This document shows positions 1 through 64,000 of a stretch of 64,000 nucleotides of DNA, piece after piece. Origin of the DNA: a virus (taxonomy: Duplodnaviria > Heunggongvirae > Uroviricota > Caudoviricetes); the IMG/VR virus record IMGVR_UViG_2695420521_000002, positions 32,001 through 96,000 of that record, one strand, 5' to 3'. The notes beneath the pieces are model-generated. The model made no database searches, had not been told where the DNA came from, and saw only the letters and a list, made by a program, of their open reading frames with translations. Each line of letters opens with the position of its first letter. Position 1 is the stretch's first letter. Both the position numbers and the translations under genes were made by a program.

Positions 1-44
1 TTAGGTCCGAAGAGGAGTTTACGTCCAGCTGCGCATAAAAATCA

Positions 45-61
45 AGAATTATTAGAGCAAT
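45..61 (-). promoter_or_regulatory. C1 repressor operator-like 17-mer
   Basis: agaattattagagcaat on + strand; 15/17 to reverse complement of P1 C1 consensus ATTGCTCTAATAAATTT. Confidence 0.6.
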
Positions 62-127
62 AAGTTTTGAGAGAAAAATCCCACTCCACCAGCAAAAAAC
101 TGGATTGTTTTTCATAGTTGTTTGACA

Positions 128-144
128 ATTGCTCTAATAAATTA
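128..144 (+). promoter_or_regulatory. C1 repressor operator-like 17-mer
   Basis: attgctctaataaatta; 16/17 to consensus; faces the 45..61 site, upstream of coi-c1. Confidence 0.65.
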
Positions 145-382
145 TAGTTTTGCCGCCGTTTCGTAATACAACTTGGGATTCACTATTTAATGTGTCTTCA
201 GCGTTGTAGAGCGGCTCAGAAGGAAATGAGCAAACAGGGAAACCTTATACAACGGCATTACAGCTATGCATTGCTCATCTTACACACAGCGCAATGTTGT
301 TAGATTACCCCAGCATGGATCATGGGTGAAACAGTAGGTCAGAGCTCCAGGCTCTGTGTTGTCAATACAGTGAGGCATAATT

Positions 383-592
383 ATGGCTTTCATTCAACCA
401 ACCATCGACGACGTTAGACATTGCTCTAACGCTTTATCTGTAGACCCTGCCGAAACCGACGCAGCCCGCGCCATTGCTGAACACTACTCAAAGATATCCA
501 ATCAGGAGTACCGCATCACCCAAGACGACCTGGATGACCTCACTGACACAATCGAATATCTCATGGCAACTAACCAGTTAGACTCACAATAA
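383..592 (+). CDS. coi: Coi, C1 inactivator
   Basis: 69-aa ORF immediately upstream of c1; size and position match P1 coi. Confidence 0.8.
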   Translation: MAFIQPTIDDVRHCSNALSVDPAETDAARAIAEHYSKISNQEYRITQDDLDDLTDTIEYLMATNQLDSQ

Positions 593-702
593 ATGCACTA
601 ATAAATCTATTATTTTTGTTTGATCCCTCTATAATATAGGTCAGTAATGACCGGTTTTCTCAGCCGGGCGTTATTGACCATGTCAATTCTGGAGGAGGAT
701 CA

Positions 703-1554
703 ATGATAAATTATGTCTACGGCGAACAACTGTACCAGGAGTTCGTCAGCTTCAGGGATCTCTTTCTAAAAAAAGCTGTTGCACGCGCCCAACACGTTGA
801 TACCGCCAGCGACGGTCGTCCTGTACGCCCGGTTGTCGTTCTACCGTTCAAAGAAACGGACAGCATTCAGGCTGAAATTGATAAATGGACTTTAATGGCG
901 CGGGAACTGGAACAGTACCCAGACCTCAATATCCCAAAGACTATTTTATATCCAGTGCCTAACATCCTTCGCGGTGTGCGCAAGGTTACAACTTATCAGA
1001 CAGAAGCTGTGAACAGCGTCAACATGACCGCTGGCCGCATTATTCATCTGATTGATAAGGACATTCGCATCCAAAAAAGCGCGGGGATCAATGAGCACAG
1101 TGCGAAATACATAGAGAACCTGGAAGCAACAAAAGAGCTAATGAGGCAGTACCCGGAGGATGAAAAATTCCGTATGCGTGTACACGGCTTTAGCGAAACA
1201 ATGCTGCGCGTCCACTACATCTCCAGTAGCCCTAACTACAATGATGGTAAATCAGTTAGTTACCATGTACCGCTGTGTGGCGTGTTTATCTGCGATGAAA
1301 CTCTCCGTGATGGAATCATCATCAACGGTGAATTCGAAAAAGCAAAATTTAGCCTTTATGACTCCATAGAACCGATCATCTGCGACCGCTGGCCGCAAGC
1401 AAAAATATATCGCCTGGCAGATATTGAAAATGTAAAAAAACAAATTGCCATCACTCGCGAAGAGAAAAAGGTTAAGTCAGCCGCATCAGTTACGCGCAGC
1501 CGTAAAACCAAGAAGGGGCAGCCAGTAAACGACAACCCCGAAAGCGCGCAATAA
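703..1554 (+). CDS. c1: C1 primary immunity repressor
   Basis: 283-aa ORF recognised as P1 C1 (MINYVYGEQLYQEF...); cognate operators scattered through the window. Confidence 0.9.
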   Translation: MINYVYGEQLYQEFVSFRDLFLKKAVARAQHVDTASDGRPVRPVVVLPFKETDSIQAEIDKWTLMARELEQYPDLNIPKTILYPVPNILRGVRKVTTYQTEAVNSVNMTAGRIIHLIDKDIRIQKSAGINEHSAKYIENLEATKELMRQYPEDEKFRMRVHGFSETMLRVHYISSSPNYNDGKSVSYHVPLCGVFICDETLRDGIIINGEFEKAKFSLYDSIEPIICDRWPQAKIYRLADIENVKKQIAITREEKKVKSAASVTRSRKTKKGQPVNDNPESAQ

Positions 1555-1557
1555 ATT

Positions 1558-1579
1558 ATGCCCGGCATCAACCGGGCAT
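1558..1579. terminator. bidirectional hairpin between convergent c1 and ant
   Basis: 8-bp stem atgcccgg/ccgggcat with 6-nt loop, AT-rich flanks. Confidence 0.5.
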
Positions 1580-1586
1580 TCTTCCA

Positions 1587-2702
1587 TTATTCAGCCGCCA
1601 CCGGTTTTAACAAGCCAGCATCGAGCAGTTTACGCGTCAACCACTGCTGGCCTTTCCCCGTTAATTGAGGCGTCAACCGTATCTGGTAGCCATCTTCATC
1701 ATCCAGCACCACTTCTTTCACCGTGAAATACCCGGCGTTGATGTATTGCTGGAACGGCACATTTTTACGTCCGCCGGACGCAATCAGGATGCCGTTCTCC
1801 CGTAACCAGGCAAACAGCGCGTTTTGCTTAAGTCCAACAACCTTTGCAAAATTTCCAATCAGGATCCCCTTGGCCACTGATACCCGGTCGGCAAAATCGA
1901 CCTTAGGGGCGGCGGCCACCAGCTGCTGATTTAGCTGGTGGGCTTTCTGTTCCAGAAGTTGCTTTTGTTCAGCCAGTTCGGCAGCCAGACGCAGGGCTTC
2001 TGGAAGCGTCTGGGGGATTGTGACCGGTTGCTGTTCTTTTTGTCGGAAGTAGCTGTCTTCCAGTTTTTCAAAGAATGCCCATGCCTGATCGGTTTCGAGC
2101 ATTTTAGCGTGACGGGCAGCGCCGCGTTCTGTCCAGAGAGTGAGTGAGCGGGCTTTGGGTGAGACTGGATTTTGTGAGTAGTTTAAAGCTACCCGCAAAT
2201 TTTTCAGCTCATCGCCAATAACCTTGAAAAAGTGCTTCCCTTCAACAAAGCGCACTTTGTTCTCATGATGATTCTGGCGAATACGGATTGTTTCTGTCCC
2301 ATACCCTTTAGCAAGAGTCTCGGTTGTCACTACACGCACCCCCTGCCACTCCAGAACGGGAATTTCATCAGGCTGATTTTGAGCAACCACCAGCTCCGAT
2401 TCCTGAACTGAAGTTGCATGAATTTTTTCTGATTTAACGTTAGTTGCTTTCATTCTGTGTGCCTCCTTGCATGCTTCGGCTGCGATGGTTGCGTAATTCA
2501 GATGCCCCTGTTCGAGCAGGTATTCGCGGATATCAGACAACAGGATACGGTGAACCGCGTTCTTGTCCTTTCTCCGGTAAAGTTGTTTGGTGATCATGAA
2601 GTAGTTGGCAATAACGCCCGGTATATCCCTGGTACTGATACAGGCAGTGTGCTGTTCAATTGCCTCGATCATCTCTTCACGGGTGACTAATGACGTTCTC
2701 AT
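1587..2702 (-). CDS. ant: antirepressor Ant (full length, KilAC-type C-terminal domain)
   Basis: 371 aa; C-terminal region shared with KilA and with the second ant; internal GGAGG + ATG at Met84 (2451..2453) would give a nested 288-aa product, the Ant1/Ant2 pattern. Confidence 0.75.
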   Translation of the reverse strand: MRTSLVTREEMIEAIEQHTACISTRDIPGVIANYFMITKQLYRRKDKNAVHRILLSDIREYLLEQGHLNYATIAAEACKEAHRMKATNVKSEKIHATSVQESELVVAQNQPDEIPVLEWQGVRVVTTETLAKGYGTETIRIRQNHHENKVRFVEGKHFFKVIGDELKNLRVALNYSQNPVSPKARSLTLWTERGAARHAKMLETDQAWAFFEKLEDSYFRQKEQQPVTIPQTLPEALRLAAELAEQKQLLEQKAHQLNQQLVAAAPKVDFADRVSVAKGILIGNFAKVVGLKQNALFAWLRENGILIASGGRKNVPFQQYINAGYFTVKEVVLDDEDGYQIRLTPQLTGKGQQWLTRKLLDAGLLKPVAAE

Positions 2703-2920
2703 AGCCCCTCCTGAGCCGAAGCGTTAACAGGGAGGCACCAGTAACTGAGAGAATTGCGTGAATCAGTGGAAAAACGGGCAGAGAAAATACATGGGGCGTC
2801 AGGAAGCTGAGAGCGGGCCTCATCTTCTGTTGTTGCGATAACGAAGTGATAGTGACGTTTCTGGCAGGAGTAAAAGCGCCAGATAAATTCAGGGTGAGTT
2901 GGGGTAGGGATAGTAGCCAT
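2699..2920 (-). CDS. icd: Icd-like cell division inhibitor
   Basis: 73 aa, immediately upstream of ant with 4-nt overlap; paralog of 50823..51044. Confidence 0.7.
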   Translation of the reverse strand: MATIPTPTHPEFIWRFYSCQKRHYHFVIATTEDEARSQLPDAPCIFSARFSTDSRNSLSYWCLPVNASAQEGL

Positions 2921-3258
2921 AATGGCAGCCTCCTTTTGCTAACTTAAGGAGCTACCGCGTGAGGTTCCAATCTCAATGGCGGTAGCACTGACTGGGTTGG
3001 AACTACCGGCGCAAAAGGGAACCGGCCTGCCTTTCGGCAGCCCAGCCAGCACTACCATTGATCTCGGAGCTATGTGCTACGTATGGCTGTGCGATGGCAT
3101 GACACAAAAAAAGACGCTTTTGGCGTCTGTGTCGCCTTTTGCATTATCCGGGGTTCCAATCCCGGCACCCGTTTTAATGAGGTGCCTGATAAGCATAAAC
3201 CGAAAATGCCTCAAGGCGCAAGAGGTCAGGTTCAATGTAACACCGGCAGTCAAAAAAC
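2921..3258 (-). ncRNA. leader expected to encode a c4-like antisense repressor RNA (boundaries not determined)
   Basis: non-coding stretch between C1 operator and icd, stem-loops, internal terminator; inferred from P1 immI architecture. Confidence 0.3.
3105..3128 (-). terminator. intrinsic terminator-like hairpin inside the c4-like leader
   Basis: on - strand stem agacgc/gcgtct followed by T7 run; similar GACACAAAAA-hairpin arrangement upstream of the other icd. Confidence 0.45.
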
Positions 3259-3259
3259 A

Positions 3260-3276
3260 CAATTTATTAGAGCAAG
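3260..3276 (-). promoter_or_regulatory. C1 operator-like 17-mer (Op51-like)
   Basis: caatttattagagcaag; 15/17; directly downstream of pacB stop, upstream of c4-like/icd/ant on - strand. Confidence 0.6.
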
Positions 3277-3281
3277 TTTTT

Positions 3282-4766
3282 TTACTCATTAAGCCATGCC
3301 AGAGCTTCATCAACCTGCGCTTCGTCTTCAACGCTAAGCACTTCATCCTGGGGAACATAGTTCGCCAACATAGCGAAACAATATGTATCCCAATGGTCCG
3401 GTGAGTGCAGGTTGAGTTTTTTCTTCATGTCTTCCTTTGACATCACCTTCCATTGACCTGCGGAATTTATCCCTACCGGTATCTTTGATGCTTCCTCTAT
3501 AGTCGCAGCCCCCTTATCAAGCCGCATACGCCCTGATTTTACAGCTTCTGCCGCCTGAATATTCGCGAAAGCGCGCATATCGAAATAAAGGCTTTTATCT
3601 TCGCGGCTGTGCATCTTTTTACCCCAGCGGATACGCTGGACGGTAATACCATAGCGTTCGTACATCAGATCAGCCGTCGATTTCCCCAAGCCATCGCCAT
3701 CAATAGCTATGGTTATGTTCGGGAACCGTTCTGGGTTACATTCTGCGAAAATCTTGGCTGCTAACTGCGTTTCTGTAACGTCTGTGTATTCCAGCATACG
3801 ATAGCTGATTACACGGCGTTTATTTCGCTGGCCGGACACCATCATGATATTGATAACTGACTTATCTCGTCCTGTGCCACCAGCAACGTCAACACATGCA
3901 ACCCAGCCCCATCCTTTGGCAATCTTGACCTTCCGCCGCGTCGCCCGCTCAACCTCATCACGACCAAGAAGAAAGCCATCTTGAGATTTGGGAAATTCAC
4001 CACGTACTTTGATCATGTACATGGGGTTATCACGACCGCCATACTCCGCAAGTTTTGCTCGTATAAATTTTGCATCTACAAGCGGAGATTCTTCACTATT
4101 CAGTATTATCGCAGTAAACAATCCATCAGGATTTCCCGGGCGAATAGCTAGTCTGTGGTGTGAATCGTAGAAATAGCCTGAAGGTCGCGTAGGCTGGGAA
4201 AGAAGCAGAATACGGTTATCCTTACCGGTCAGCGCACCTGTTATCACACTGAATGCTTTATCACTCACACCCGACGCTTCGTCGATGATATACAAGAGAT
4301 GATCGGCGTGTTCACCAGCCAACGCCTCCTCATTTCCGGGGCGACAGGACTTTATCAATATTGTCCAAACACCCTTGCCAGTCACCTCAAAAAAAGACGT
4401 TTCTGTAAGAATGAAATACTTCGACAACCACGGGAATCTGCTAACAGCAGTAGCCCAATTGCTCTTTATGTATTTGAAAATACCATCAAGGACTTGCTGT
4501 CTTTTGTTAGCGACCAGAATGACGCGAGCGCCGGGGAAAAACATGATGAAGAGTATTGCAATGATACTCGTCATATCCGACTTACCAGTACCATGGCCGG
4601 AGGTCACACTTGTCCAACTGCCGTCCTGCTGCGTGGACTCAATGATCTCATCCTGCTGCCAGGTTGGTGTCTTCCCAAACAACACATCAGCGGCCGCAAT
4701 CCAGTCATAACGATATAGCGCCACCAGCTCGCGCCAACGTGGGTCCGTTACGCAACTTCTGGCCAT
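3282..4766 (-). CDS. pacB: terminase large subunit PacB
   Basis: 494 aa, Walker A GHGTGKS, nuclease-like C-terminus; size and position as P1 PacB. Confidence 0.85.
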
Positions 4767-5959
4767 TAATCATCATCCCCGTACAGTTTGCGGGTAACTT
4801 CTTCGTCTTCCTCCTCGTCTTCGTCCAGATCCTGTTCAAGCCATGCTTCGTTTGATATGCCTTCCGCATCGACATCACCATAACCACCTGTATCGACGAT
4901 ATCGGCAATTTCTTCTCTACGATGCTCAATCCACAATGCGGCATCAGCGCGGCGGCTGGCGGCCCGTTCTCGCGCGATTTTATCCAGATCTTCAAGTGAT
5001 GGAGCGCCAGATGCTGTTTGGTTTTCCTCATCATCGGTATTGGTCTTAGGAGCACGCAGATCGGCTTTGATTTGCTCCAGCATCAGGGGCGGCACTTTTC
5101 CGCCATGCGCCTCGATGAATTCAGCAGCTTCCAGCACTGACCAGTTATTTTCACGCTTTCGTTCGTATGCCAGCTTAACAATGCCAGCTTGCCCCATAGA
5201 TAAAGCGTGCTTTTCCGCCTCCCGGCTTTCTTTTCGATAGTTATTCCGGATGCTATAAATGGTGTTGATCAGGCTGCTTATCTGCGCGGAACAGCTGTTT
5301 AGCATGCTCGCGATACGGTATTCAGGCGGAGTACCTTCATCATCGTCTTTTTGCTGATCGCGCATTTCCTGCACCAGGCGAATACACGTATCCCGGGCGT
5401 TCTCCAGCATAAGGAGATGAGAAAGAGACTTTTCAAGAAGAGTGGTTTCCAGAACATCGGCCCCGGACCGACGCAACATAGCGCGCGCGGCCTTCCGCGC
5501 TTCAACGTTATCTATCAGGTAATCGCCAGCTTCGAATTCAAAGCGTTCACCATCATCATCCAGGGTGTCGCGTTCCAGGCGATCACGTAAGGTCCGGTGG
5601 GCGCGGGTGATCACGTCATGATCATCTGAACGATCATTTATGCGCTTATTTTGGCGCTTCGCATTCTCGACTGCGGCACTGATAACGGCATTAACTCTTT
5701 GTTTTTCCGCTATTTCAGCCGCAATGTGATCACCTGCATGTTGATCATTAGAGTGATCAATGATCATGCTTTTTAGTGGCTTCCTGACTGGCTTATTTGG
5801 CTTGCGGCTGTCCGCTGTCCTGGTGTCTTCTTTAAAGGCACGGAGATAACGACGTGCAGTATTAGGGTTAAGATTAAACTCGGCGGCATACTGTGCGATG
5901 GTGTAACCACCATCTCGCGCCAGGCGAGCAAAATTCTTCTTGTGATCGTCCCAGGTCAC
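4766..5959 (-). CDS. pacA: terminase small subunit / pac recognition protein PacA
   Basis: 397 aa; contains the pac hexamer cluster within its coding sequence. Confidence 0.85.
5580..5766. other. pac: pac packaging site: two clusters of TGATCA/G hexamers (Dam sites)
   Basis: hexamers at 5580, 5608, 5619, 5631 and at 5727, 5742, 5754, 5761 flanking a ~90-bp core; matches known P1 pac architecture. Confidence 0.7.
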
Positions 5960-6040
5960 TTATGCTTCCTTTCGTAAAAACTCTTTTTGACGCGAGGGTA
6001 ACGAAAGTCACATGTCAAAAGGCCCGGAACGGGCAAGCAA

Positions 6041-6493
6041 TCAGATACGTGCGGATGTGGCATTACCGTAATGACGGTGCTGACGGGCCACCTTATTGAA
6101 AAGTTGACGCGCCATTACCCAAGGCTGGTGCTCCCGGCGTTCCTTTTCGTCCTGCGTCATATAGAGTTCGTTCTGGAGTTTTTCATCAAACCGGCGCGGC
6201 GCGCGGCTGCGGCGAAAGAATTCAGGATTCAGAGAGTGGATCTGAAATCTGCGTGGGCGTGTACTGTCATCAATCAAAACAGACGAATACTTAGACACAG
6301 CGATAGCCTTTAAGCGCAGATAAACATCGCGCTTATCGACATCCAGATGCGGGTATTCCTTTTCAAGAATTGCTGCGAGTTCTTTCGCTGATAGAAGAGA
6401 TTTAGTGCGGATCATGTAATCCGCAATCTCGTACGATGTTATTCGTGAGTGATTTATTTCCATGAAGTGGCGTCCCTGCCAGTTAAGTAACAT
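6041..6493 (-). CDS. lpa: putative late promoter activator (Lpa-like) by position and size
   Basis: 150-aa basic protein directly upstream of pacA, preceded by a C1 operator; no domain recognised. Confidence 0.45.
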   Translation of the reverse strand: MLLNWQGRHFMEINHSRITSYEIADYMIRTKSLLSAKELAAILEKEYPHLDVDKRDVYLRLKAIAVSKYSSVLIDDSTRPRRFQIHSLNPEFFRRSRAPRRFDEKLQNELYMTQDEKERREHQPWVMARQLFNKVARQHRHYGNATSARI

Positions 6494-6563
6494 CCTGTCA
6501 CCTACTGATTAGCCCATGTCAACTAATCAACGTGGAATATAATACCCTCGATTAAAGAAATAG

Positions 6564-6580
6564 CAATACATTAGAGCAAT
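6564..6580 (-). promoter_or_regulatory. C1 operator-like 17-mer
   Basis: caatacattagagcaat; 14/17; upstream of lpa-like/pacAB operon. Confidence 0.5.
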
Positions 6581-6581
6581 T

Positions 6582-7625
6582 TTATCTAACGTTCGACGAG
6601 TGACTTGTGATAGCGCCGACTCCAAGCGCGTAATCAAAGAACAATCGTTGATGCATCGCCAGCCTACCGTGCGTCTTCTCCCAATTATCGCGGTCACGCT
6701 CAATATCACGCTGGCATGACTGGCACAGAGGAATAGCATAAATGTCATGCGCGCATAATCGACTATGACGAACGATATAAGGCGTAATGTGAGCGCCAGC
6801 TCCCGCAGCTCCACACCCACAGCATGGACGGGAAGCAACAAAGTCCATGTACTCAGGTAATTTTAGCGATTGCAGTTTTGGTATTTTGAAATGCGCCATA
6901 CCTGGGTCGGAGTCAACATCCACTGGACATACTTTTGCGCGCATCGGCGCGGCACGTTCTTCCATCATCTGAACATATGCTGTAGCGCGATCGTCATACG
7001 GGCGAATATCCGCCTCTTTCAGAGGTCCGCTATCCTGCGTTGCTGCCTTAATCTTATTTATTGATATACGGCAGACTTCTTCCGGCATCAAGTGCATCAT
7101 GTCGCGCATGAAAGCCCACCAGCACAGTTCCTGAATACTTAAATCATGGCCATCTGAAAGCCCCATTTCCTGACGGGCGACATCCAGTATCCAGTTAACG
7201 CGATTATTATGCAGCGTTTCTTTCAGCTCATTAAAACCACGCATCCTGTAATGGTTATCGTGATGCCAGCACAACAACACCGCGCTATTGTCTCGTTCTG
7301 CGTGGACAATATGGTTGTCACACCAGCTACGATCTGCGGCCTGGCATTGCCCCTCTTTCCTGCGCAACCACGCCACCAGCGCGTCAATTCCACCAATACG
7401 GCGAAACAGTTCATCGCTGTTAAAAAACGGCTGCAACGCCTCATTTGTTGCCATAGTTTGCTCGGAAACAACGAGGCCGTCGTCCATGTGCTCGATTAAC
7501 TCACGCGGCACCGGCTCCATAATAAATTTACGGCCAGCCTCCACCAGCTTTCTGACTTCCTGATCCACTTTGAATGTGGCGACGCCAAGCTCTTTTTGTA
7601 CAAAGGGAGTAATTACGGCTTTCAC
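6582..7625 (-). CDS. hypothetical protein with C-terminal Cys-rich cluster
   Basis: 347-aa ORF between doc and lpa-like gene; motif PCCGCG...C..C near C-terminus. Confidence 0.5.
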
Positions 7626-7652
7626 ATCACACCTTTCATCACTGATTGGGCT

Positions 7653-7832
7653 TTATCTGCTGCCCGGCATTCTCTGTTTAAGCACAACCATTTCCTGACG
7701 GCATAACACAGCAATAGCAGTCCTGGCTCCAATTTGCTTACCAACCAGGTATTGCTTTACCTCGCGGCGACTCACGCCATCAAGAAGCATCTTTAACGCT
7801 TCACGGGACAATTTGTTGTATTTACGTGCCAT
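7653..7832 (-). CDS. small basic hypothetical protein
   Basis: ORF track 7653..7853; start moved to in-frame ATG at 7832 preceded by GGAG, avoiding overlap with doc. Confidence 0.3.
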   Translation of the reverse strand: MARKYNKLSREALKMLLDGVSRREVKQYLVGKQIGARTAIAVLCRQEMVVLKQRMPGSR

Positions 7833-7836
7833 TAAT

Positions 7837-8217
7837 CTACTCCGCGGAACCATACAATCTACGTAACGTGTCGGCGACAGAAGATACAGATATCTCGCCA
7901 GTTGCAGCGCCTACGGTAAGGTCTGCCAGTTCAGGTGAATCAAATACCTGCACCCCGTTACGGCGTAGAAATAGCAGCGCACTGTTTAGCGCGGTACGCT
8001 TATTGGCATCATTGAATATATGCCCTCTCGCTGTAGCCACCAGGTAGGTGGCGGAGACTTCGAAAAGGTCGGTGATCTCTTCGTAGGCAACTCTGGCCTG
8101 AACTCTCCCGATAATGGCCTCTGCCCTACCCGGATCAGACATTCCCGGCAGGCCGCCGTAGCGGCTTATATTCGCATCATGAAGCGCAATAAGTTCTTCC
8201 GGTGATATATGTCTCAT
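7837..8217 (-). CDS. doc: Doc toxin (Fic-fold kinase)
   Basis: 126 aa, recognised as P1 Doc ([22 protein letters not shown]...). Confidence 0.95.
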
Positions 8218-8875: not shown

Positions 8876-8909
8876 TATTATTTAAGATTGAGTCATTCTA
8901 AGCAAAAAA

Positions 8910-55232: not shown

Positions 55233-58200
55233 ATGGAAAGAAAAAACGCCAACATTGACGATGTTATAAGGACAGTTGAAACCGCCAGCGCAAAAGAGCT
55301 GGAAGAGCTTGCAGGTATCCGGGAAGCTGTTGAAGATTTGAAAGGGGGACGCGTTGCAACTGTTGATCCTGTCTCTCGCAGCGTGTCGGCATTAAATCGC
55401 ACAATCGAAAATTCCCGGCCTGACTTTGTGGCCAAAGCGCCATCCGTAGACCCTATTGTTGACGCAATGAAACGGCTTAATTTAGGGGACGTTTCTCGTG
55501 TAGTTCAGGAAGATGTTGCTCAACAGGAACAGCGGGCCAAATCAACCACACCAAAGGGAAAAAAACGACGCAGGAAGGCTATACCAGAGGATGTAAAGGC
55601 ACAACGGACCGAAGCAGCCGAACACGCTCGCGAAATGTTCGGTCAAAAAGGCGGTGCGCAAAAAAGCCAAAACCAACGCGATGCGCGTGGTCGTTTTATT
55701 GGGAAGTCAGGGAGTAAGGCCGCAGCGGAAGATGCCCGTGCTGAACGTGCTGAAAAAGCCAGGCGCAAAGAGGATGATGAGCGTCTAAATGCTGAATCGG
55801 GTTTATTAAAAAAACTGTCAAAAGTAGCTGAAGGCATAGGTAACCCTTCAGAGACTCGTGCCGTCGATGCTTTAGGTTATGCCGTTGCTGGTCCATTGTG
55901 GGCAGCAGGAAAGGAGCTTGGCGGAATATCAAAAGAAGTTGGCGGTTCGCTTAATGGTGCCAGAAAGTCAATTGCCGATGTGATTCGTGGCAATGACGAT
56001 AACAGCCGTAGAAAAGGTTTTTTTAGGCGTAAATCGCAAAGTAGTGCCGATGTCGTTCAGGTTAACACCCAAAAACGGACGGTTCAGGAACTTCAGGATC
56101 AGACCAGCGAAATTAAAGAAGGCAATGACAAGATTCTCAGCGCCCTTGATCAGATAGCCAAAAACACCGGGAAAAAGAAGGGCGGCTTGCTGTCCAAATT
56201 ATTTAGCCTGTTAGGGAAGGGGGCCGGTGGTATTGCTTCCCTTATTTTTGGCCGTGGGGCACTAAAGAAAGTTGGCTCGATGGCACTAGGCGCTTTAGGT
56301 ATAAAAAAAGTTGCAAGCTTATTGGGCTTTGGTGGGAAAAAAGCTGCTGCCAAAGAAGCTGGCGAATTGGCTACTCGCGGTGCCGGAAAACTTGCAACTA
56401 AGGGATTGGGGAAACTAGGTGTTAAGGCTCTTGCAAAGGGGGCTTTACGCGCAATTCCGCTAGTCGGCACGGTGGCTGGAGGTATCTATGATGCGGTAAC
56501 CGGTTGGAATGATACAGAAGCACAACGTCGGACCTTTGGGCTTAAGGATGGGGAAGATCCATCTTTTCAGCAAAAAGCGGCTTATACACTGGCTAACGTT
56601 CTCGATATGGGAGGACTGGTATCTGGTATTAGCAGTGCCATTGGTGGCGTTCTCAAATCACTTGGATTTGAGGATATCGGCAATATGTTGCAATCATTTT
56701 CGACGGAAAGTATTGCACAGGCCATTGATAGTGGGATTACCAATTTAGAAACATACATTTCTAACCTTGGTGACACCATATCCACAACATTCAACGATTA
56801 CACAGCCAAGATTGGCGATGCTATTTCAGCTTGGTTCAGTGACACAACCAAGAGTCTGAACGAAAAATTAGACGCCATCAAAGACTTCTTTACTGTCGAT
56901 AACCTGAAAAAGGTTTTCAGTGATTCAATTGATAGTGCAATTGATTTCATTAAGAACCCTGGGAAATACATTAAAGAGGCTGGCAGTAATTTATGGCATA
57001 CCGTAAAAGAACATGCGGGCGAGGCAATGGATAAGACAGCAGATGCTGTTATTCAGAGTACCCCTCTTGGCTTAGTTGCATCAACATTAGTCAATAAAGC
57101 GAATGCGAAAGAGGTCACGCCTGAATTAAAAACACCTGCTAAAGAAAGTCAGGAGAGGAATACTCCTAAGTCTGAAGATATCCCTAAAAAGGCTAATATT
57201 GTCACTCGTGTTGTAAATGCATCCCTGGATACGGCTCAGAATGGCAATAAAATAGTTAAAGAGACAGCCAATCAGATTATCAATGCAAATGCCGTAGAAA
57301 CAGGAAATAAAGCGGCACAAACAATTGATGCTGCTTTGGGCCAGTCTGCTACAGGCAAGGAGGAAGCATTAAGTGCATATGAGATAGATAAACGTCGATT
57401 TAACAACGGCAAGGATGTTTCTTTGCCAAAATTAAATGCTGCCGGATACCAATGGATTTCTGACAATGCCGATTATTTTGATGAGCTTGAACGTAAGTAT
57501 GGGCTTGAAAAAGGGATTCTGTCAGCAGTTGCATCCGCAGAGTCTAGTGCTGGCCAGAGAACTGGAAATCCAGTAGACAAAAACGGAAACAAACTTTCAT
57601 CTGCCCTTGGGGCTTTTCAGATCACTAAAGGTACAAGGGAGGATCTTGGACTCAGCGATGCTGATGCCATGGATACACGAAAAGCAGCTGATGGTGCCGC
57701 CAGATACCTAAGTATGCTGATGAACCGTTATAACGGTGATCAGGGGCGTGCAATAGCTGCCTATCATGCTGGTATGGGGCATGTTGATAAGGGGAGAGTA
57801 GTCGCCGGTACCGGCGAATATGTGACTCGTGTCAGAGGGTATCAGCAGATGCTCAATAATGGTGCCGTTTATGGCTCTAAGGTAGATCATAGCGCACCAG
57901 CAATTTACGAAAAGATACCTGATAACGCCGTTATCGATCAGTCTACTGGTCTGGCGTTTACCCCTGGTGATAGCCCGTTTGAGAAAGGCGGTCTGGTAGA
58001 CAAAATCGGCAATGCTGTTGGCGTTAACGATCTGGTCAACAAATTCATGAATGGCCGGGGGATGCGTCGGGAAGTCGTCCAGGGAACCCTCGAAGAACGT
58101 GCACGAGGAAGGGGAACCGCAACGGCAGCTGGCAATGTGTATGTTGACACACCTATGCCAGTTGAAGAGGCACGTCCGGTGGCCAACAACTCAAGTTACT

Positions 58201-58625
58201 TTGACCAGCTCGGCGCACAAATGGGGATTGATGGACTGTATGACAAACTCATTAATGCCCGGGGAATGCGCTCAAATAATTCTCCTCAACCAGCTTCCAC
58301 GTCCCAGATGACGACTGTCGCCAACGATTTGCAGCAACCAACCGGTCGTATGCAGATAGACGGGCAGGTTATTAGTGACCTTGGCGGTTCCGGTGCCAAG
58401 CCGACAATGCAGTTGGCTGATAATACCGTTTCACTTGATGGTGAAACGAAGCGGCTGTTTGCGCAGATGACCTCATTGCTTGCCAGGATTGAAGAGCACA
58501 CCAAAGACTCGGCGAAAGGCCAGGGAACTGTCGTAAAGGTCAGCACGCCTCAGCCGGGCGTTATGCGCACGGTACCACTGTCAATTGATGATCCGTTGAT
58601 GAATGACTACGCGAGAGTTGATTGA
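55233..58625 (+). CDS. sit: Sit-like tape-measure / injection protein with lytic transglycosylase domain
   Basis: 1130 aa; central coiled-coil and Gly-rich segments; SLT-like motifs AESSAG...GAFQI...AYHAG near residues 760-850. Confidence 0.8.
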   Translation: MERKNANIDDVIRTVETASAKELEELAGIREAVEDLKGGRVATVDPVSRSVSALNRTIENSRPDFVAKAPSVDPIVDAMKRLNLGDVSRVVQEDVAQQEQRAKSTTPKGKKRRRKAIPEDVKAQRTEAAEHAREMFGQKGGAQKSQNQRDARGRFIGKSGSKAAAEDARAERAEKARRKEDDERLNAESGLLKKLSKVAEGIGNPSETRAVDALGYAVAGPLWAAGKELGGISKEVGGSLNGARKSIADVIRGNDDNSRRKGFFRRKSQSSADVVQVNTQKRTVQELQDQTSEIKEGNDKILSALDQIAKNTGKKKGGLLSKLFSLLGKGAGGIASLIFGRGALKKVGSMALGALGIKKVASLLGFGGKKAAAKEAGELATRGAGKLATKGLGKLGVKALAKGALRAIPLVGTVAGGIYDAVTGWNDTEAQRRTFGLKDGEDPSFQQKAAYTLANVLDMGGLVSGISSAIGGVLKSLGFEDIGNMLQSFSTESIAQAIDSGITNLETYISNLGDTISTTFNDYTAKIGDAISAWFSDTTKSLNEKLDAIKDFFTVDNLKKVFSDSIDSAIDFIKNPGKYIKEAGSNLWHTVKEHAGEAMDKTADAVIQSTPLGLVASTLVNKANAKEVTPELKTPAKESQERNTPKSEDIPKKANIVTRVVNASLDTAQNGNKIVKETANQIINANAVETGNKAAQTIDAALGQSATGKEEALSAYEIDKRRFNNGKDVSLPKLNAAGYQWISDNADYFDELERKYGLEKGILSAVASAESSAGQRTGNPVDKNGNKLSSALGAFQITKGTREDLGLSDADAMDTRKAADGAARYLSMLMNRYNGDQGRAIAAYHAGMGHVDKGRVVAGTGEYVTRVRGYQQMLNNGAVYGSKVDHSAPAIYEKIPDNAVIDQSTGLAFTPGDSPFEKGGLVDKIGNAVGVNDLVNKFMNGRGMRREVVQGTLEERARGRGTATAAGNVYVDTPMPVEEARPVANNSSYFDQLGAQMGIDGLYDKLINARGMRSNNSPQPASTSQMTTVANDLQQPTGRMQIDGQVISDLGGSGAKPTMQLADNTVSLDGETKRLFAQMTSLLARIEEHTKDSAKGQGTVVKVSTPQPGVMRTVPLSIDDPLMNDYARVD

Positions 58626-58981
58626 TGGCCAACAATAACGAAATTGATCCTTTGCTGACGCTGGAGTTATCCGGCGTAAAAACGTATGAGTCCCAGGAGG
58701 AGGCCTGGGGCGCTCGTTTATATGAGTGGCTAAACACTTATCAGGGTGAGGTATACGGAGATCCGTCATGGGGCAATGTTTTACCGCAGTTTAAACACGA
58801 ACCGACCAACTTGTCGCATGTTCAAATTGCGGTTGAGGCAATGCTTTTGCAAAAACTGACGGTAGATTTACCCGACATACCGATTTCTGGCTTGTCAGTA
58901 GCCGAGGGAGATGCTTTTGATAAGTTGAAAATATCCATTCGTATCAGGGATATAACTATCACACAGGACGTGGTGCTATGA
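58622..58981 (+). CDS. baseplate wedge protein (gpW/gp25-like)
   Basis: 119-aa ORF coupled between sit and baseplate gene. Confidence 0.4.
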   Translation: MMANNNEIDPLLTLELSGVKTYESQEEAWGARLYEWLNTYQGEVYGDPSWGNVLPQFKHEPTNLSHVQIAVEAMLLQKLTVDLPDIPISGLSVAEGDAFDKLKISIRIRDITITQDVVL

Positions 58982-60411
58982 GTAAAACAACACCGACTAA
59001 AGACAGTATTCGTGCAGAGTTTGAAGAGCTTGTCGAGAAAGATTCATTCTGGTCGAAGTTTGTCGGCTCTCAATTTGTCTCGATGCTGACATTGTTTATT
59101 ACCCAGATTGTCTACAGGTGCTTTCAGTATGCCGATGCGGCGCTGGCTGAAGGCTTTATATCGACCGCGACGCGGCGTTCCTCTATCCTGGCTGCGGCAG
59201 AAACGAACAGTTATGTTGGTACCAAGCCAACACCGTCATCGGGGATGATTGAGATCACCGCCACAAGTGAAGATGCCCCAGCAGTAATTCCCAAAAACAT
59301 GCCTTTAATATCTGACGACCAATACCCTTACATGACTATGGATGTATGCCGGTTGGTAGACGGCACCGGTACGGTAGAAGTGGCACAGTTGGAAATTCAG
59401 GAGGTGACATATACCGTTACGGCTGCCAAAGAATTTCTGGAAGTCGTGTTATCAAAGGCTCTCACTGCTGTCTGCTATAAGCTGGAAGTATTCGTGACGA
59501 CCGATGGTAAGACCACGCAGTGGTCTTCCAGCACTATGTTCCGGTTAGCCGGTAGTAAAAGCCAGGTCTACGTTGAGTTTTATAAACCATCCGAACAGTT
59601 GGGTGTCCGATTCGGCGATGGGCTAATTGGGCAAATACCGCCAGAAGGCTCGACAATTACGCTTAAGGTATGGTGCACCAACGGCGATATAACCCTGGTT
59701 GCTGGCCAAAACCTGACGCCTGTCGATTCTGCGGCTAATTTAGCTAATTTGATTTCAGTTAAGACAACGACACCTATAACCGCAGGTACCGATGCTGAAA
59801 CAACGGAGATCACACGTAACCGTGCACAATATTACCTTGCCTATGATGATCAGGTCGTATGGGGCGGGGACTATACGTATTTTCTGGTTCGTAACATCCC
59901 GGGGCTGTCCTGGGTAAAGGCATGGGGCGAAGGCCAGCAAGAGAAATTAGATGGTGCTTATAATGTTCAGAATATCAATAAGATATTTATTTCAGGATGG
60001 CATCCAAATAAAAGCCAGTCAGAGCTTGAAGAAATGATCCTGACTGCCTTTAAGAAGGTACCGAATGAACTGAACAAGAAATTCTCTTATAAAGAGGTCA
60101 GAAAACTACCATTTAAGATAACCATCACCGGACGGATATCGGCAAGCCTGACCATTGAGAATGTGACCGATGAGCTGAAGTCGGCACTGGAAACAAAATT
60201 TGGGCGCGACTCAACTTTCTTTGATCCGAATCGCGTCGGAAAGTACATCCTGATTAAGAAAAAAGACGTTTGGGCTTTTATAGAAACGCTGGGTTATTTC
60301 CGCGACTTTTATCTGGAATTTGTCGAGTGGAATGAGTCCAACGGCTTTTACGATTTCGTTTATCTGGATACAGAAAACTCCACCTTTAATATTTCGTATG
60401 AGGAGGAGTGA
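58978..60411 (+). CDS. putative baseplate protein (gpJ-like)
   Basis: 477-aa ORF, translationally coupled. Confidence 0.4.
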   Translation: MSKTTPTKDSIRAEFEELVEKDSFWSKFVGSQFVSMLTLFITQIVYRCFQYADAALAEGFISTATRRSSILAAAETNSYVGTKPTPSSGMIEITATSEDAPAVIPKNMPLISDDQYPYMTMDVCRLVDGTGTVEVAQLEIQEVTYTVTAAKEFLEVVLSKALTAVCYKLEVFVTTDGKTTQWSSSTMFRLAGSKSQVYVEFYKPSEQLGVRFGDGLIGQIPPEGSTITLKVWCTNGDITLVAGQNLTPVDSAANLANLISVKTTTPITAGTDAETTEITRNRAQYYLAYDDQVVWGGDYTYFLVRNIPGLSWVKAWGEGQQEKLDGAYNVQNINKIFISGWHPNKSQSELEEMILTAFKKVPNELNKKFSYKEVRKLPFKITITGRISASLTIENVTDELKSALETKFGRDSTFFDPNRVGKYILIKKKDVWAFIETLGYFRDFYLEFVEWNESNGFYDFVYLDTENSTFNISYEEE

Positions 60412-61247
60412 TGCAGCGTTCCTGGTTTAATAACCGGCTTACATCAGCTAAGCAAAAGTCATTGCTCTATAAATCATTGGCTGATTTGGTTCAGTCAATG
60501 ATGGATACCTTTGTTGACCCATGGTTGGAGCGAATTACCAACCGGAAGTCTATTTTTTCCATGAGCAAGGAGGATCTGGAGACCAAGACAAATGAACTTG
60601 GCCAGTTCTTTACTATCAGAACGTCGAACTCATCTTCCGTTCCGATGTTGTTACAACAGCGTCTTGATGAGATTCACTTTAAGGGGACTGAACGCCCTAT
60701 AAACCAGACAATTTACCGCGAATTTAACGGTATTTCTGTTTTATGGGATCCGATATATGCACCGGTGGACCTTGAGCGTCATCCCTATGGCACGGTTCTA
60801 ATACCAGAAAGCACACTGGAAACTACCGGCGGCACATTCGGCGAGATGTTTCTGACTTCCAGAGGGATGATCAGTATTCCCATAAACGACCTGGCCCGGA
60901 CAATGGGGATTACTGGCACGATAGATCAGTCCGCAATTACAGAAGAAATTCTCAGAAAGTTTAATCAGTTCGTAAAGCCTCTACTGCCACTGCATATAGT
61001 GTTTGATGGGCTTACGCTCTATTTGTCGGTTGTTGTAAATGAAAAGGCCGACATGATCACTTTGAACGAGATTTCTGATACCGAAAAAGCGTACTGCTGG
61101 TTTGAAACTTCGGATACAACTTCGCTTACTGGAGTTACGTCGATTAGCGCTCCGATCACTGCAACGCCGGGCGGCACTATTGTGAAAGCAACGCCTACGT
61201 TTGATCGCACCCGCGCAGATGATTTGCTGCTGGATAGCGATGCCTGA
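60408..61247 (+). CDS. putative baseplate/tail protein
   Basis: 279-aa ORF, coupled. Confidence 0.4.
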   Translation: MMQRSWFNNRLTSAKQKSLLYKSLADLVQSMMDTFVDPWLERITNRKSIFSMSKEDLETKTNELGQFFTIRTSNSSSVPMLLQQRLDEIHFKGTERPINQTIYREFNGISVLWDPIYAPVDLERHPYGTVLIPESTLETTGGTFGEMFLTSRGMISIPINDLARTMGITGTIDQSAITEEILRKFNQFVKPLLPLHIVFDGLTLYLSVVVNEKADMITLNEISDTEKAYCWFETSDTTSLTGVTSISAPITATPGGTIVKATPTFDRTRADDLLLDSDA

Positions 61248-61325
61248 TAATCACCCCGTCCGCAGGGCGGGGTGACAAGTTACTTCTCTTACAATGAGGC
61301 TTCACAACATTGATTAGGGAAAATC

Positions 61326-61760
61326 ATGTCTGACGTCTCAACAAACCTCTATAAGAGTCAGTTGTTGGACTATTACTATCAGCGGCGCGCTGAATCGTCC
61401 ATTAACAAAGGCTCTCGATTTTTAATCAGCAAGGCCGTTTTCGGTACCAGTTCACTGGTTACTAAGAAAGGAGATGGCACTTATGAGATTGGAGAACTGC
61501 CAAAGGATTTCGATCTGGCAGAACTGACCAGTCAATTTTGCACCATTAACCTCGTCCCAACCTACTCTGGCGGGATAATTACTGTCCGAATGGACCTTGA
61601 TCAAAGCCAGTTGCAGGAAGGGAAAAACTACCCATTCAACACTCTGGTTGTTCTGGATAACGAGAACAAGCCAATCGCCATTATTTGTGTCCAGGAAGAC
61701 TCGCTGTATGTGGGCAAAACATATACCGCAGTTATGGCCATAAACACGACTACAGCATAA
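61326..61760 (+). CDS. small tail protein immediately upstream of tail fibre gene
   Basis: 144-aa ORF with GGGAAAATC..ATG context. Confidence 0.4.
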   Translation: MSDVSTNLYKSQLLDYYYQRRAESSINKGSRFLISKAVFGTSSLVTKKGDGTYEIGELPKDFDLAELTSQFCTINLVPTYSGGIITVRMDLDQSQLQEGKNYPFNTLVVLDNENKPIAIICVQEDSLYVGKTYTAVMAINTTTA

Positions 61761-61771
61761 GGATATGCTTG

Positions 61772-64000
61772 ATGAATGACGTTACAGTTGTTACATCAGT
61801 TACTTACCCATCGCCCGAGTCACTGGCTCTGGTGGCTGATGTGCAATACCACGAACCATATCTGTCAGCCGCGCTAAACCGAAAATTCAGGGGAATTGTT
61901 GACCCTGGATTTTATGCAGGTTTCTTGCCGAAGCCTGGCGGTGGGATGAACCTGTTAATCACCTCAGTGGATGGTGATAAAACTGCTGGCGCTGCGTCAG
62001 TGGATATTGGTGAATTCTACCAGGTAACTATTCAGCACCGTAAGGATATTTCTCTTGCACTTAGTGCAGGCAAGAAATATGCAATTGTGCTGAAGGGAAG
62101 ATACCTCCTTGGAGAGGATACCTATCAGGTTAATACCGCGTCACATATTCATGCGGCTGAATTTGTTGCCAGAACCTATACCGATTCATATCAGTTAGGA
62201 GATGGGGAGCTGCTTGTTTGTACGGTGAATATCCCTGCTGGCGTATCAGCCATTACCCAGGAGATGATTGATACATCCGAGCGTATTAACCGCACGATCG
62301 GCATTGATATTTCAGACTCTGTAACCAGTAGCAGAAGTGATGTTGCGGCAAGTTCGCTGGCAGTTAAAAAAGCCTACGATCTGGCGAAAAGTAAGTATAC
62401 GGCGCAGGATGCAAGCACAACGCAAAAGGGATTAGTTCAGCTCAGTAGCGAAACTAACAGCGACAGCGAAACAATGGCTGCTACCCCTAAAGCAGTTAAG
62501 TCTGTAAAAGATCTTGCTGATACCAAAGCGCCAATAGAAAGCCCGAGTCTGACAGGAACGCCAACCGCGCCGACGGCAGCGCAAGGTACAAATAGCACGC
62601 AGATCGCAAATACAGCCTTTGTTAAGGCAGCTATAACGGCACTTATCAACGGCGCACCTGGCACACTGGATACGCTTAAAGAAATAGCTGCTGCGATCAA
62701 TAACGACCCGAATTTCAGCACAACTATCAACAATGCTCTGGCTCTTAAAGCTCCTTTAGCAAGTCCTGCATTAACGGGAATACCTACTGCGCCTACCGCT
62801 GCACAGGGTACGAATAACACGCAGATTGCTACGACCGCTTATGTAAGAGCTGCCATATCCGCATTGGTTGGTTCATCACCAGAAGCTCTTGATACCCTGA
62901 ATGAGCTTGCCGCAGCACTTGGTAATGACCCTAACTTTGCGACAACAATGACAAATGCGCTGGCAGGCAAACAGCCTCTGGATGCAACTTTAACCGCGCT
63001 TGCTGGTCTTGCGACAGGCGCAAATAAATTGCCGTACTTTACCGGTACAGACACTGTTTCTCAGACAGACTTAACGTCAGTCGGTCGCGATATTCTGGCC
63101 AAAACAAGCGTTCTTGCTGTTATCCAATACCTTGGTTTAAGAGAACTCGGTACCAGCGGTGAAAAGATCCCCCTGTTGAGCACGGCTAACACATGGAGTG
63201 CACGCCAGACTTTCAACGGCGGGATCACCGGCGCACTGACGGGGAACGCCGACACCGCAACGAAATTAAAAACAGCGCGGAAGATTAACAACGTTTCATT
63301 TGACGGTTCTGCGGACATAACGCTGACTCCTGCGAACCTTGACGTATACAGCAAAAGCGAAATAGACAATAAAAAAGGGATGCGTAAATACACGCTTACT
63401 GCACCATCTGGTGCAGTAAGTGGTAAGTGGTATCCCGTAGTTTTTCGTCGTTCATCTGGCGGTAATAGCGAGCTGGCATCGAGAGTGGTTATCACGACGG
63501 CATCAACCACTGGTAATTTCGCAATGAATAACTGCGAATTTAACGGGATGGTTATGTCCGGTGGCTGGTCAGACAGGGGGTCATATGCTGCTGGTTATTT
63601 CTGGACGTATCAGGCGGATGAGCGGGCTATTCACTCCATCATCTCAGGTGTTAAAGATGATGACAGGAGCTGCGTTTTTTACGTTGAAGCCAGAGCATTC
63701 CCGATACAGGTCTTTGCCGAAGAAGGTCTGAGCGTTGTACTTCCGACAGAAGATTACACGCTCGGACAGAGCACGTACAAATGGGGTGTAACAGACCCGG
63801 CGGCGGAAAGCACAAACGTACAGACGATTCTGGATTTTAAAGATGGGCGTGGTTATTACTGCTCGCATCCGTTTATTTCAAGCCTTTCAGGGAATGCAGC
63901 AACCGCAACGAAACTTGCAACGGCAAGAAAGATTTCAGGTGTGGCTTTTGATGGTTCTGCCGATATTACATTAACTGCTGAACATGTATCAGCATTTGCT
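61772..64000 (+). CDS. tail fibre protein, 3' end outside window
   Basis: open frame from ATG 61772 to window end (743 codons, no stop); tandem ~70-aa tail-fibre repeat and repeated FDGSADITLT motif. Confidence 0.8.
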   Translation, partial: MNDVTVVTSVTYPSPESLALVADVQYHEPYLSAALNRKFRGIVDPGFYAGFLPKPGGGMNLLITSVDGDKTAGAASVDIGEFYQVTIQHRKDISLALSAGKKYAIVLKGRYLLGEDTYQVNTASHIHAAEFVARTYTDSYQLGDGELLVCTVNIPAGVSAITQEMIDTSERINRTIGIDISDSVTSSRSDVAASSLAVKKAYDLAKSKYTAQDASTTQKGLVQLSSETNSDSETMAATPKAVKSVKDLADTKAPIESPSLTGTPTAPTAAQGTNSTQIANTAFVKAAITALINGAPGTLDTLKEIAAAINNDPNFSTTINNALALKAPLASPALTGIPTAPTAAQGTNNTQIATTAYVRAAISALVGSSPEALDTLNELAAALGNDPNFATTMTNALAGKQPLDATLTALAGLATGANKLPYFTGTDTVSQTDLTSVGRDILAKTSVLAVIQYLGLRELGTSGEKIPLLSTANTWSARQTFNGGITGALTGNADTATKLKTARKINNVSFDGSADITLTPANLDVYSKSEIDNKKGMRKYTLTAPSGAVSGKWYPVVFRRSSGGNSELASRVVITTASTTGNFAMNNCEFNGMVMSGGWSDRGSYAAGYFWTYQADERAIHSIISGVKDDDRSCVFYVEARAFPIQVFAEEGLSVVLPTEDYTLGQSTYKWGVTDPAAESTNVQTILDFKDGRGYYCSHPFISSLSGNAATATKLATARKISGVAFDGSADITLTAEHVSAFA

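Follow-up and report, generated by a model that had tools for sequence, protein, structure and literature searches.

The 64,000-nucleotide stretch analysed here, hereafter called the window, covers positions 32,001 to 96,000 of the IMG/VR record IMGVR_UViG_2695420521_000002. Judged by its sequence, it is two thirds of a P1-type phage-plasmid of Escherichia coli in which variation is confined to variable spots that have already been described. It very probably represents about 64 kb of a P1-like (Punavirus) phage-plasmid of about 99 kb, whose departures from P1 reflect modular exchange and not a new architecture. These departures are not peculiar to the element and fall on published variable regions (PMC9603915, PMC6906374), its only uncommon feature being the allele of an FdeC-like adhesin gene located between pap and phd.

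The evidence for the P1 backbone comes from a blastn alignment of the whole window with the complete P1 genome (NC_005856, 94.8 kb). Ten collinear blocks in reverse orientation relate positions 1-63318 of the window to P1 94784-36295, with 50.3 kb aligned (79.9% of the window), identities of 91.7-98.3% per block, and a weighted mean of 96.9%. An initial annotation of the window had described a P1-family backbone with its landmarks in reversed P1 order, and all the landmarks that it named were located. Tblastn searches with the 75 P1 proteins from the matching arc found a counterpart for every P1 backbone gene, with amino acid identities ranging from 77 to 100%, the majority lying between 97 and 100%. 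RepA, ParB, Phd, Doc, Lpa, PmgA, PmgO, PmgR, gp26, UpfC, and Uhr are identical to their P1 counterparts. Nearly all counterparts are full-length, the short ones being dbn (residues 9-326 of 332) and upfB (residues 1-279 of 281). The sites annotated in P1 were found at their expected positions with 0-2 mismatches, including 11 C1 operators, Pphd, and six late promoters (LPsit, LP23, LP26, LPpmgL, LPpac, and LPs). LPpac, LP23, LP26, LPsit, Olpa, and Pphd show no mismatch to P1, and the pac region shows a single one in 171 bases. Lpa, the late promoters, PacAB with pac, and the myovirus tail, baseplate, and capsid genes are all present in the window. The source contig, CYGK01000014.1 of the E. 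coli assembly GCA_001286565.1, is P1-sized with 99,399 bp, P1-like elements averaging roughly 96 kb (PMC9600943), and approximately 1,400 PLSDB plasmids match the first 25 kb of the window.

The plasmid maintenance region is nearly identical to that of P1. RepA had been announced with 5+9 iterons and, indeed, 5 incC and 9 incA iterons were located, with 9 iteron matches against 0.03 expected by chance; all 14 stand at their expected positions with 0-2 mismatches, and the replicon belongs to the IncY type. ParA, ParB, and parS are present together with Phd/Doc. An exact 34-bp loxP runs outward from window position 1 (source locus L010, 22539-23630); this source locus continues for 1,091 bp past window position 1 and comprises there loxP followed by cra and the first part of cre, so that the loxP/Cre system of dimer resolution lies on the source contig outside the window. 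The absence of an integrase had been taken initially as a reason to expect a plasmid lifestyle. The lifestyle is supported, but the reasoning is weak as this absence is an effect of the window edge, with loxP starting at position 1 and cra/cre following just beyond it. Annotations routinely label Cre an "integrase". The support for a plasmid lifestyle comes instead from the intact IncY-type RepA and iterons, ParAB/parS, and Phd/Doc, from the P1-sized contig on which c1, loxP, and cre are adjacent as in circular P1, and from a closed circular E. albertii plasmid with shared junctions.

The element would thus be kept at low copy number by the P1/IncY machinery, with RepA acting on 5 iterons in the origin and on 9 incA iterons for control. 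Partition would depend on ParA, ParB, and parS, while Phd/Doc would kill cells losing the plasmid and loxP/Cre would resolve dimers. Lysogeny would be held by C1 at dispersed operators together with an immI region of P7 type, and the switch to the lytic cycle would rely on RepL/oriL, on late promoters dependent on Lpa, and on headful packaging by PacAB. These mechanisms have been established for P1 and are extended to the present element from its near-identity.

Ten stretches of the window, numbered G1 to G10, have no blastn match anywhere in the P1 genome. They consist of five allelic replacements at published variable regions, three insertions (G1, G3, and G4), an extra tRNA-Ser gene, and a divergent centre of sit. 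Eight highly variable regions were described among P1-like phage-plasmids by Wang et al. in 2022 (PMC9603915), namely res-mod, isaA-IS1-isaB, lydC-cin-S/U, simCBA, rlfAB-pmgF, repA-upfA, tciABC, and pmgT...humD; G10, G8, G7, G5, and G2 correspond to regions 3, 4, 5, 7, and 8, respectively. Venturini et al. reported matching hot-spots of low GC in 2019 (PMC6906374), one example being an hsd system in place of pmg genes. The extra cargo mentioned in the initial annotation was confirmed by alignment and family searches, and the whole-window alignment did not find it in P1, so the result that could have overturned the claim did not materialize. Further departures come in addition to those that had been itemised: rlfAB/pmgF, simABC, the centre of sit, and the S tip are affected, immI is of P7 type, and ant1 contains an amber codon. 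All cargo modules are also found in other P1-like plasmids. The G+C content is markedly low in the three smallest pieces, at 0.374 (G3), 0.375 (G4), and 0.355 (G8) against 0.471 for the window. Neither transposases nor insertion sequences, long inverted repeats, or flanking direct repeats were found in the window, and capture of the islands by an insertion sequence or a transposon was rejected for this lack of mobile-element signatures. Since no insertion sequence or long repeat flanks the modules, homologous or short-homology recombination in the conserved flanks would be their route of exchange.

The adhesin island (G2) was initially thought to replace the hot/lxr/humD region after phd. The replacement is real, but its extent is larger and runs from pmgT through humD; tblastn with the P1 proteins found neither the pmgT, pmgU, and pmgV genes nor upfM, upfN, upfO, hot, or lxr in the window. 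The product of the island gene begins with an inverse-autotransporter beta-barrel (Pfam IAT_beta, 6.1e-109, residues 78-352) related to the invasin and intimin structures 4E1T (8e-84) and 4E1S (2e-73). Its passenger consists of tandem Ig-like domains (Big_1, 9.8e-69; Invasin_D3, 3.6e-67, in 7 stretches), and the best solved relative is the FdeC fragment of PDB entry 4E9L (3.1e-138). The protein shares 66% amino acid identity with E. coli FdeC over about 1,140 residues and 97.9% with the protein of plasmid p2RM9976. It is not an orthologue of chromosomal fdeC, which encodes about 1,416 residues in the ykg/rcl neighbourhood, given the DNA identity of approximately 82% and the location on a phage-plasmid. 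"FdeC-like" is therefore an accurate name and "adhesin island" a fair one, adhesion being the predicted function. An origin from the chromosomal fdeC of the host was rejected on these identities to E. coli fdeC (82% in DNA and 66% in protein), and an origin from the E. albertii chromosomal homologue was rejected as well, that homologue being reported as only 27.6% identical to EaeH.

Among PLSDB plasmids, the island occurs in p2RM9976 of E. albertii only, at the same locus, and the island with its junctions is absent from all 5,426 complete E. coli genomes searched. No report of an inverse autotransporter or of FdeC on P1-like phage-plasmids was found in the literature. P1-like elements with the virulence genes cnf3 and stb/eltAB have been reported (10.1101/2025.09.12.675607). 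In the records inspected, the pap-phd interval holds hsdMSR (pET6.1-IncY), narUZHWI (an E. fergusonii plasmid), or the P1 genes. The adhesin gene lies downstream of the C1 operator OpmgT and the PpmgT promoters and is co-oriented with them. A promoter and terminator scan of the island performed no better than on shuffled sequence, and no promoter is claimed within it. An open reading frame for 48 hydrophobic residues (12994-13140, minus strand) starts in P1-homologous DNA downstream of OpmgT and crosses the island boundary at 13082. In pET6.1-IncY, the corresponding spot between hsdR and pap also has a small annotated open reading frame.

Outside the P1 family, the closest relatives of the adhesin (92-95% identical) are found on two draft contigs of E. 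coli and E. albertii; the SSU5-like phage-plasmids considered comprise loci L011, L012, L013, L006, and L016. There, the gene stands in the context Dam...TerB-DUF3927...DUF4942-(PerC)-MarR-adhesin-ApbC-MetG, on a backbone of the SSU5 supergroup of phage-plasmids (96.8% to phage Cyrano and 81% to SSU5). Another member, p108_MLI108-3, has siphovirus tail genes and dnaE, and its adhesin is 70% identical. It also bears SPFH, TerB (tciA-like), and DUF3927 (tciB-like) genes, and several accessory modules are therefore common to the P1 and SSU5 families. Homology with the SSU5-type cassette covers positions 8812-13024 of the window at 91.4%; it begins shortly past the stop codon of MarR and ends about 100 bp beyond that of the adhesin. 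The cassette thus entered, or departed from, the P1 backbone unaccompanied by its regulators. A humD-like remnant follows the adhesin gene in several of the SSU5-type contexts (L006, L012, and L013), as it does in the window, and a single crossover in humD probably moved the adhesin cassette.

A broader scenario can be proposed, speculative and rather unlikely as a whole, in which the adhesin of about 1,210 residues is a dedicated cargo cassette moving between SSU5-like siphoviruses and P1-like myoviruses. In P1, it would stand without MarR/PerC and downstream of the C1-repressed pmgT promoter, so that its expression and host adhesion would be tied to prophage repression or delivered by lysogenic conversion. 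Separately, two orthogonal c4-icd-ant modules, one with an amber codon, could sense or resist co-resident elements of P1/P7 type.

Immunity in the window involves C1 with its dispersed 17-bp operators and immI with c4 RNA, icd, and ant. The operator scan returned 15 C1-operator-like sites against 0.36 expected by chance. The canonical immI is a P7 allele, as the a' and b' loops of its C4 RNA and all four mRNA targets (a1, b1, a2, and b2) are identical to those of P7 and co-vary relative to P1. Taking its P7-type immI with its P1-type rep/par, the element can be described as a P1/P7 mosaic within P1 subgroup 1. In ant1/ant2, Ser208, encoded by TCG in P1 and P7, is changed to an amber codon (TAG) upstream of the KilAC domain, and the gene otherwise aligns in full. 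The truncated Ant product of 207 residues is recorded from the source contig only. The amber codon is probably a private mutation, a base-call error being less probable.

A second immI-like module (G1) is inserted between c1 and pacB. Two C4 RNAs (RF01695) pass the gathering score of 45, one in each module, and both keep loop-target complementarity with differing sequences. The recognition elements of G1 (a, TTGGAAC; b, GCAAAAGG) pair with the C4 loops of G1 itself by complementarity and differ in sequence from those of the canonical module, from which we infer that both modules would be orthogonal. G1 is common in P1-like plasmids, its Ant cluster having 555 members, and is annotated at the same position in pET6.1-IncY and in p18B226LT3 of E. 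fergusonii. In P1-like plasmids, annotations often mistake the C4 RNA of the second module for an "ash family protein". A plus-strand open reading frame for 142 residues at 2976-3404 is regarded as spurious, as it is antisense to the C4 and isrK-like RNAs.

Besides the adhesin and the second immunity module, the window carries several smaller cargo pieces. The insertion of the YeeE/YedE gene in G3 directly follows the terminator hairpin common to the convergent genes 5 and dbn. The gene product clearly belongs to the Sulf_transp family of sulfur/selenium-compound transporters, but it matches neither of the characterised subfamilies (TsuA/YeeE and YedE/FdhT), reaching 33-73 bits with the NCBIfam TsuA and YedE models, whose cut-offs are 350-645; G3 occurs in 2 PLSDB records, both from E. 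fergusonii. G5 and G6 replace tciABC and upl and are common (740 plasmid records, 188 of them full-length), with a further occurrence in phage D6. The statement that no tciABC-like genes lie near the tRNAs holds, tblastn having returned no tciA, tciB, or tciC, and phage D6 has a matching set of tRNA-Ser, tRNA-Thr, and tRNA-Asn. G7 has full-length matches in 32 records, the SJ46 type among them, and rlfA and rlfB were not found in the window by tblastn. Its outer-membrane protein is a member of the Ail/Lom family and not OmpX itself, as the OmpX equivalog model gives 114 bits, below its cut-off of 176. G8 is to be regarded as a divergent sim allele and not as foreign cargo; it has one full-length plasmid match, and tblastn found no simB in the window. 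The Sit allele is alone in its 90%-identity cluster of the protein collection. NCBIfam equivalog cut-offs are not reached by the adhesin, YeeE/YedE, SPFH, or Ail/Lom proteins, for which family-level names are used. PADLOC detected no defence system among the unannotated cargo open reading frames, with a weak PDC-S05 match to the ORF6N domain of the second Ant only, and G7 and G8 were not called as defence systems since PADLOC gave no match. The cargo would add to a lysogen two surface factors (the FdeC-like adhesin and the Ail/Lom protein), a membrane protein of the SPFH family, a transporter of YeeE/YedE type, and a fourth tRNA, as well as a variant superinfection-exclusion (sim) allele and a second antirepressor module controlled by antisense RNA.

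Other explanations of these features have to be weighed. Defective P1-like plasmids are documented (PMC6906374), and a domesticated P1-derived plasmid that replicates and partitions without completing the phage cycle any longer would fit the amber codon in the canonical ant1/ant2, the loss of pmgT, pmgU, and pmgV ("putative morphogenetic") and of rlfA and rlfB ("lytic-replication-linked"), the isolated Sit allele, and the location of about 35 kb of the element outside the window. This explanation is nevertheless unlikely. Indeed, the structural, packaging, lytic-replication, and late-activator genes of the window are full-length without internal stops, the pac site and late promoters are conserved, and no insertion sequence has interrupted them. 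Moreover, the missing genes sit in variable regions, P1-like JL22 gave phage-like particles after mitomycin C (PMC9603915), and the 99.4-kb contig is close to the average size given above for P1-like elements (PMC9600943). Membership of the P7 or D6 lineage, with the P1 comparison overstating the departures, is very improbable. The immI c4 loops and targets identical to P7, the tRNA-Ser/Thr/Asn set, and the second icd-ant module as D6-like traits could suggest it, but identity to P1 is 100% for RepA and ParB and 99.7% for ParA, and coverage of the middle segment is lower with P7 (74%) than with P1 (85%). A D6-lineage origin was rejected, only four short segments reaching at least 88% identity to D6. 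The chance that the island is an assembly chimera, in which chromosomal fdeC reads were mis-joined into a P1-like contig, is negligible even though the source is a draft assembly and fdeC is present on E. coli chromosomes: a closed circular plasmid of E. albertii has the island together with both junctions at 98% identity, the adhesin is too distant from chromosomal fdeC (about 82% in DNA and 66% in protein) to be the copy of the host, and P1 homology resumes cleanly on both sides.

Some points do weigh against reading the element as a P1-like phage-plasmid shaped by modular exchange. The canonical ant1/ant2 carries an amber codon. About one third of the element (approximately 35 kb, with the res/mod region, dar, portal, lysis genes, cin, and the remainder of S) lies outside the window, and the completeness of the phage is judged on the window genes. 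The P1 genes pmgT, pmgU, pmgV, rlfA, rlfB, and simB are missing, and that they are dispensable is deduced solely from the many other P1-like plasmids that lack them. The recombination route is a proposal derived from the lack of mobile-element signatures, and the roles of the cargo genes are predictions.

The finding is mostly ordinary, as P1-like phage-plasmids are abundant in Escherichia and their plastic loci have already been mapped. Its added value is the documentation of surface or virulence-type cargo (the FdeC-like adhesin and Ail/Lom) on a P1-like element, resistance genes being the more familiar load, together with evidence that one adhesin cassette passes between phage-plasmids of P1-like and SSU5-like type in E. 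coli and E. albertii. Such a picture agrees with the published idea that accessory genes are exchanged among phage-plasmids, whose infections can disseminate colonisation traits. The coordinates of all features are given in Table 1.

Table 1. Features of the 64,000-nucleotide window, in window coordinates (aa, amino acids; nt, nucleotide; ORF, open reading frame).
Feature	Position	Strand	Evidence or remark
immC control region	45..608	.	C1-operator-like sites 45-61, 128-144, 592-608 (operator scan)
coi	383-592	+	sequence
c1 repressor, 283 aa	703..1554	+	98.9% aa identity to P1 C1; Pfam Phage_P7_repressor_C1
G1, second immI-like module, inserted between c1 and pacB	1554..3281	-	absent from P1
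G1 Ant-like ORF, ORF6N+KilAC, 371 aa	1587-2702	-	Pfam ANT, ORF6N
G1 Icd-like ORF	2699-2920	-	
G1 C4 antisense RNA	2975-3062	-	Rfam C4 76.7 bits, above canonical copy
G1 isrK/a1b1-like leader	3107-3185	-	Rfam isrK 62.4 bits
G1 C1-operator-like site	3260-3276	-	operator scan
pacB, pacA, lpa, pdcB, pdcA, doc, phd	3282..8438	-	96-100% aa identity to P1; pac site ~5618-5788
PacB	3282-4766	-	P1 landmark
PacA	4766-5959	-	P1 landmark
Doc	7837-8217	-	100% to P1
Phd	8220-8438	-	100% to P1
humD remnant, last 30 codons	8514..8603	-	tblastn aa 100-129; left island boundary P1 87887
G2, adhesin island, replaces P1 pmgT-pmgU-pmgV-upfMNO-hot-lxr and most of humD (variable region 8)	8598..13082	-	blastn gap
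FdeC-like inverse-autotransporter gene, 1,211 aa	8910-12545 (annotated start 12539)	-	
AT-rich region upstream of adhesin gene	12546-13024		
OpmgT C1 operator, PpmgT promoters retained	13223..13239	-	0 mismatches to P1 OpmgT
pap, pmgS-pmgL, genes 26, 25, 7, 24, 6, 5	13242..23829	.	98.3% nt identity over 10.8 kb; 92-100% aa
G3, YeeE/YedE (Sulf_transp) membrane-protein insertion after terminator between genes 5 and dbn	23858..25238; gene 23971-25134	+	Pfam 2.9e-40
dbn, G4 ORF, ban	25195..27850	-	P1 alignment; G4 absent from P1
G4, 101-aa ORF between ban and dbn	ORF 26178-26483; gap 26182-26469	-	phrog_12809; also in p2RM9976
Ban	26483-27844	-	P1 landmark
tRNA region	28130..30201	-	ARAGORN
tRNA(CAT)	28130-28205	-	ARAGORN
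G5, SPFH/Band7 gene replacing tciABC (variable region 7)	gene 28233-29060; gap 28215-29302	-	Pfam Band_7 1e-30
G6, extra tRNA-Ser(UGA)	29540-29626; gap 29445-29632	-	ARAGORN
tRNA-Thr	30048-30123	-	ARAGORN
tRNA-Asn	30126-30201	-	ARAGORN
dmt, hrdC, uhr, upfC, upfB, ppfA, mlp, upfA	30875..36601	.	92-100% aa identity; Oban, Odmt operators 0 mismatches
Dmt	30878-33139		P1 landmark
Plasmid maintenance region: oriR, repA, iterons, parA, parB, parS	36643..40639	+	P1 identity
oriR DnaA boxes, GATC cluster, 5 incC iterons	iterons 36760-36863	+	oriR identical to P1
RepA	36920-37780	+	100% to P1
9 incA iterons	37780-38064	+	sites at expected positions
ParA	38338-39534	+	99.7% to P1
ParB	39551-40552	+	100% to P1
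parS	40557-40639	+	all ParB boxes intact; differences in central spacer only
Genes 23 (capsid), 22 (sheath), 21, pmgG, bplB	40757..46098	+	94-99.8% aa identity
G7, replaces pmgF-rlfB-rlfA (variable region 5)	46141..48014	.	
G7 210-aa ORF	46234-46866	+	identical to SJ46 gp016; N-terminus weakly PmgF-like
G7 83-aa ORF	47046-47297	-	
G7 Ail/Lom outer-membrane protein	47357-47872	-	Pfam OMP_b-brl 9e-25, Ail_Lom 1e-22
repL/oriL, kilA, canonical immI	47955..51375	-	P1 alignment
RepL	47955-48797	-	P1 landmark
KilA	48827-49627	-	P1 landmark
ant1/ant2 (canonical)	49792-50826	-	amber codon 50203-50205
icd (canonical)	50826-51044	-	
c4 RNA (canonical)	51095-51171	-	Rfam C4, 69.6 bits
a1/b1 leader (canonical)	51246-51298	-	
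Oc4	51359-51375	-	
G8, divergent sim locus (variable region 4)	51445..52995; gap vs P1 51581-52995	+	replaces simB and simC; PHROGs
G8 221-aa ORF, SimA-like N-terminus (90% over 50 aa)	51445-52110	+	tblastn
G8 260-aa SimC-like ORF, 34% identity	52140-52922	+	tblastn
Tail/baseplate block: pmgC, tub, pmgB, sit, pmgA, bplA, 16, R, S constant part	52996..64000	+	P1 alignment
Sit (injection transglycosylase/tape measure)	55233-58625	+	77% aa identity to P1 Sit
G9, divergent centre of sit	57330-57917	+	no P1 alignment
G10, S variable tip unlike P1 (variable region 3)	63319-64000	+	window ends within invertible C-segment

Compared with known systems, the adhesin has the same architecture as FdeC/EaeH of the E. 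coli chromosome, with an inverse-autotransporter beta-barrel followed by tandem Big_1/Invasin_D3 domains. FdeC/EaeH counts 1,417 residues, whereas the protein of the element, with 1,211, is shorter by about 205 residues (two Ig-like domains), plasmid-borne, and devoid of the chromosomal fdeC neighbours. The SSU5-supergroup phage-plasmids (Cyrano type and p108_MLI108-3) have related adhesins in common with the element on an unrelated backbone with siphovirus tail genes, dnaE, and another replicon, and their MarR, PerC, apbC, and metG genes were not carried into it. G1 is built from the same parts as the antirepressor modules of isrK/C4 type (operator, leader, C4 RNA, icd-like, and ant-like genes), with different recognition sequences and an ORF6N+KilAC antirepressor, whereas the canonical module matches the immI of P7 in its a' and b' loops and in its a1, b1, a2, and b2 targets.

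With P1 (NC_005856), the type Punavirus, the element shares the gene order, iterons, oriR, parS, pac, C1 operators, and late promoters. It differs from P1 by the lack of pmgT-humD, tciABC, rlfAB/pmgF, and simB and by the presence of G1, G3, G4, the extra tRNA-Ser, and the P7-type immI. Plasmid p2RM9976 (NZ_CP043264.1; E. albertii RM9976, IncY, 85.8 kb) carries the same adhesin island at pap-phd with 98.2% DNA identity and also G4, but it is devoid of G1, G3, G5/G6, G7, and G8, keeps tciA/tciB-like genes, and has hokD in the place of Ail/Lom. Identity across the c1-pacA region reaches only about 91%, and part of the phd region of the window is not matched in this plasmid. RCS47, JL22, SJ46, pET6.1-IncY, and p18B226LT3 share the backbone and the plastic loci with the element; their pap-phd locus holds other cargo, and some of them bear resistance genes and insertion sequences that are absent from the window. 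Among them, SJ46 carries the G7 allele, and p18B226LT3 of E. fergusonii carries G3.

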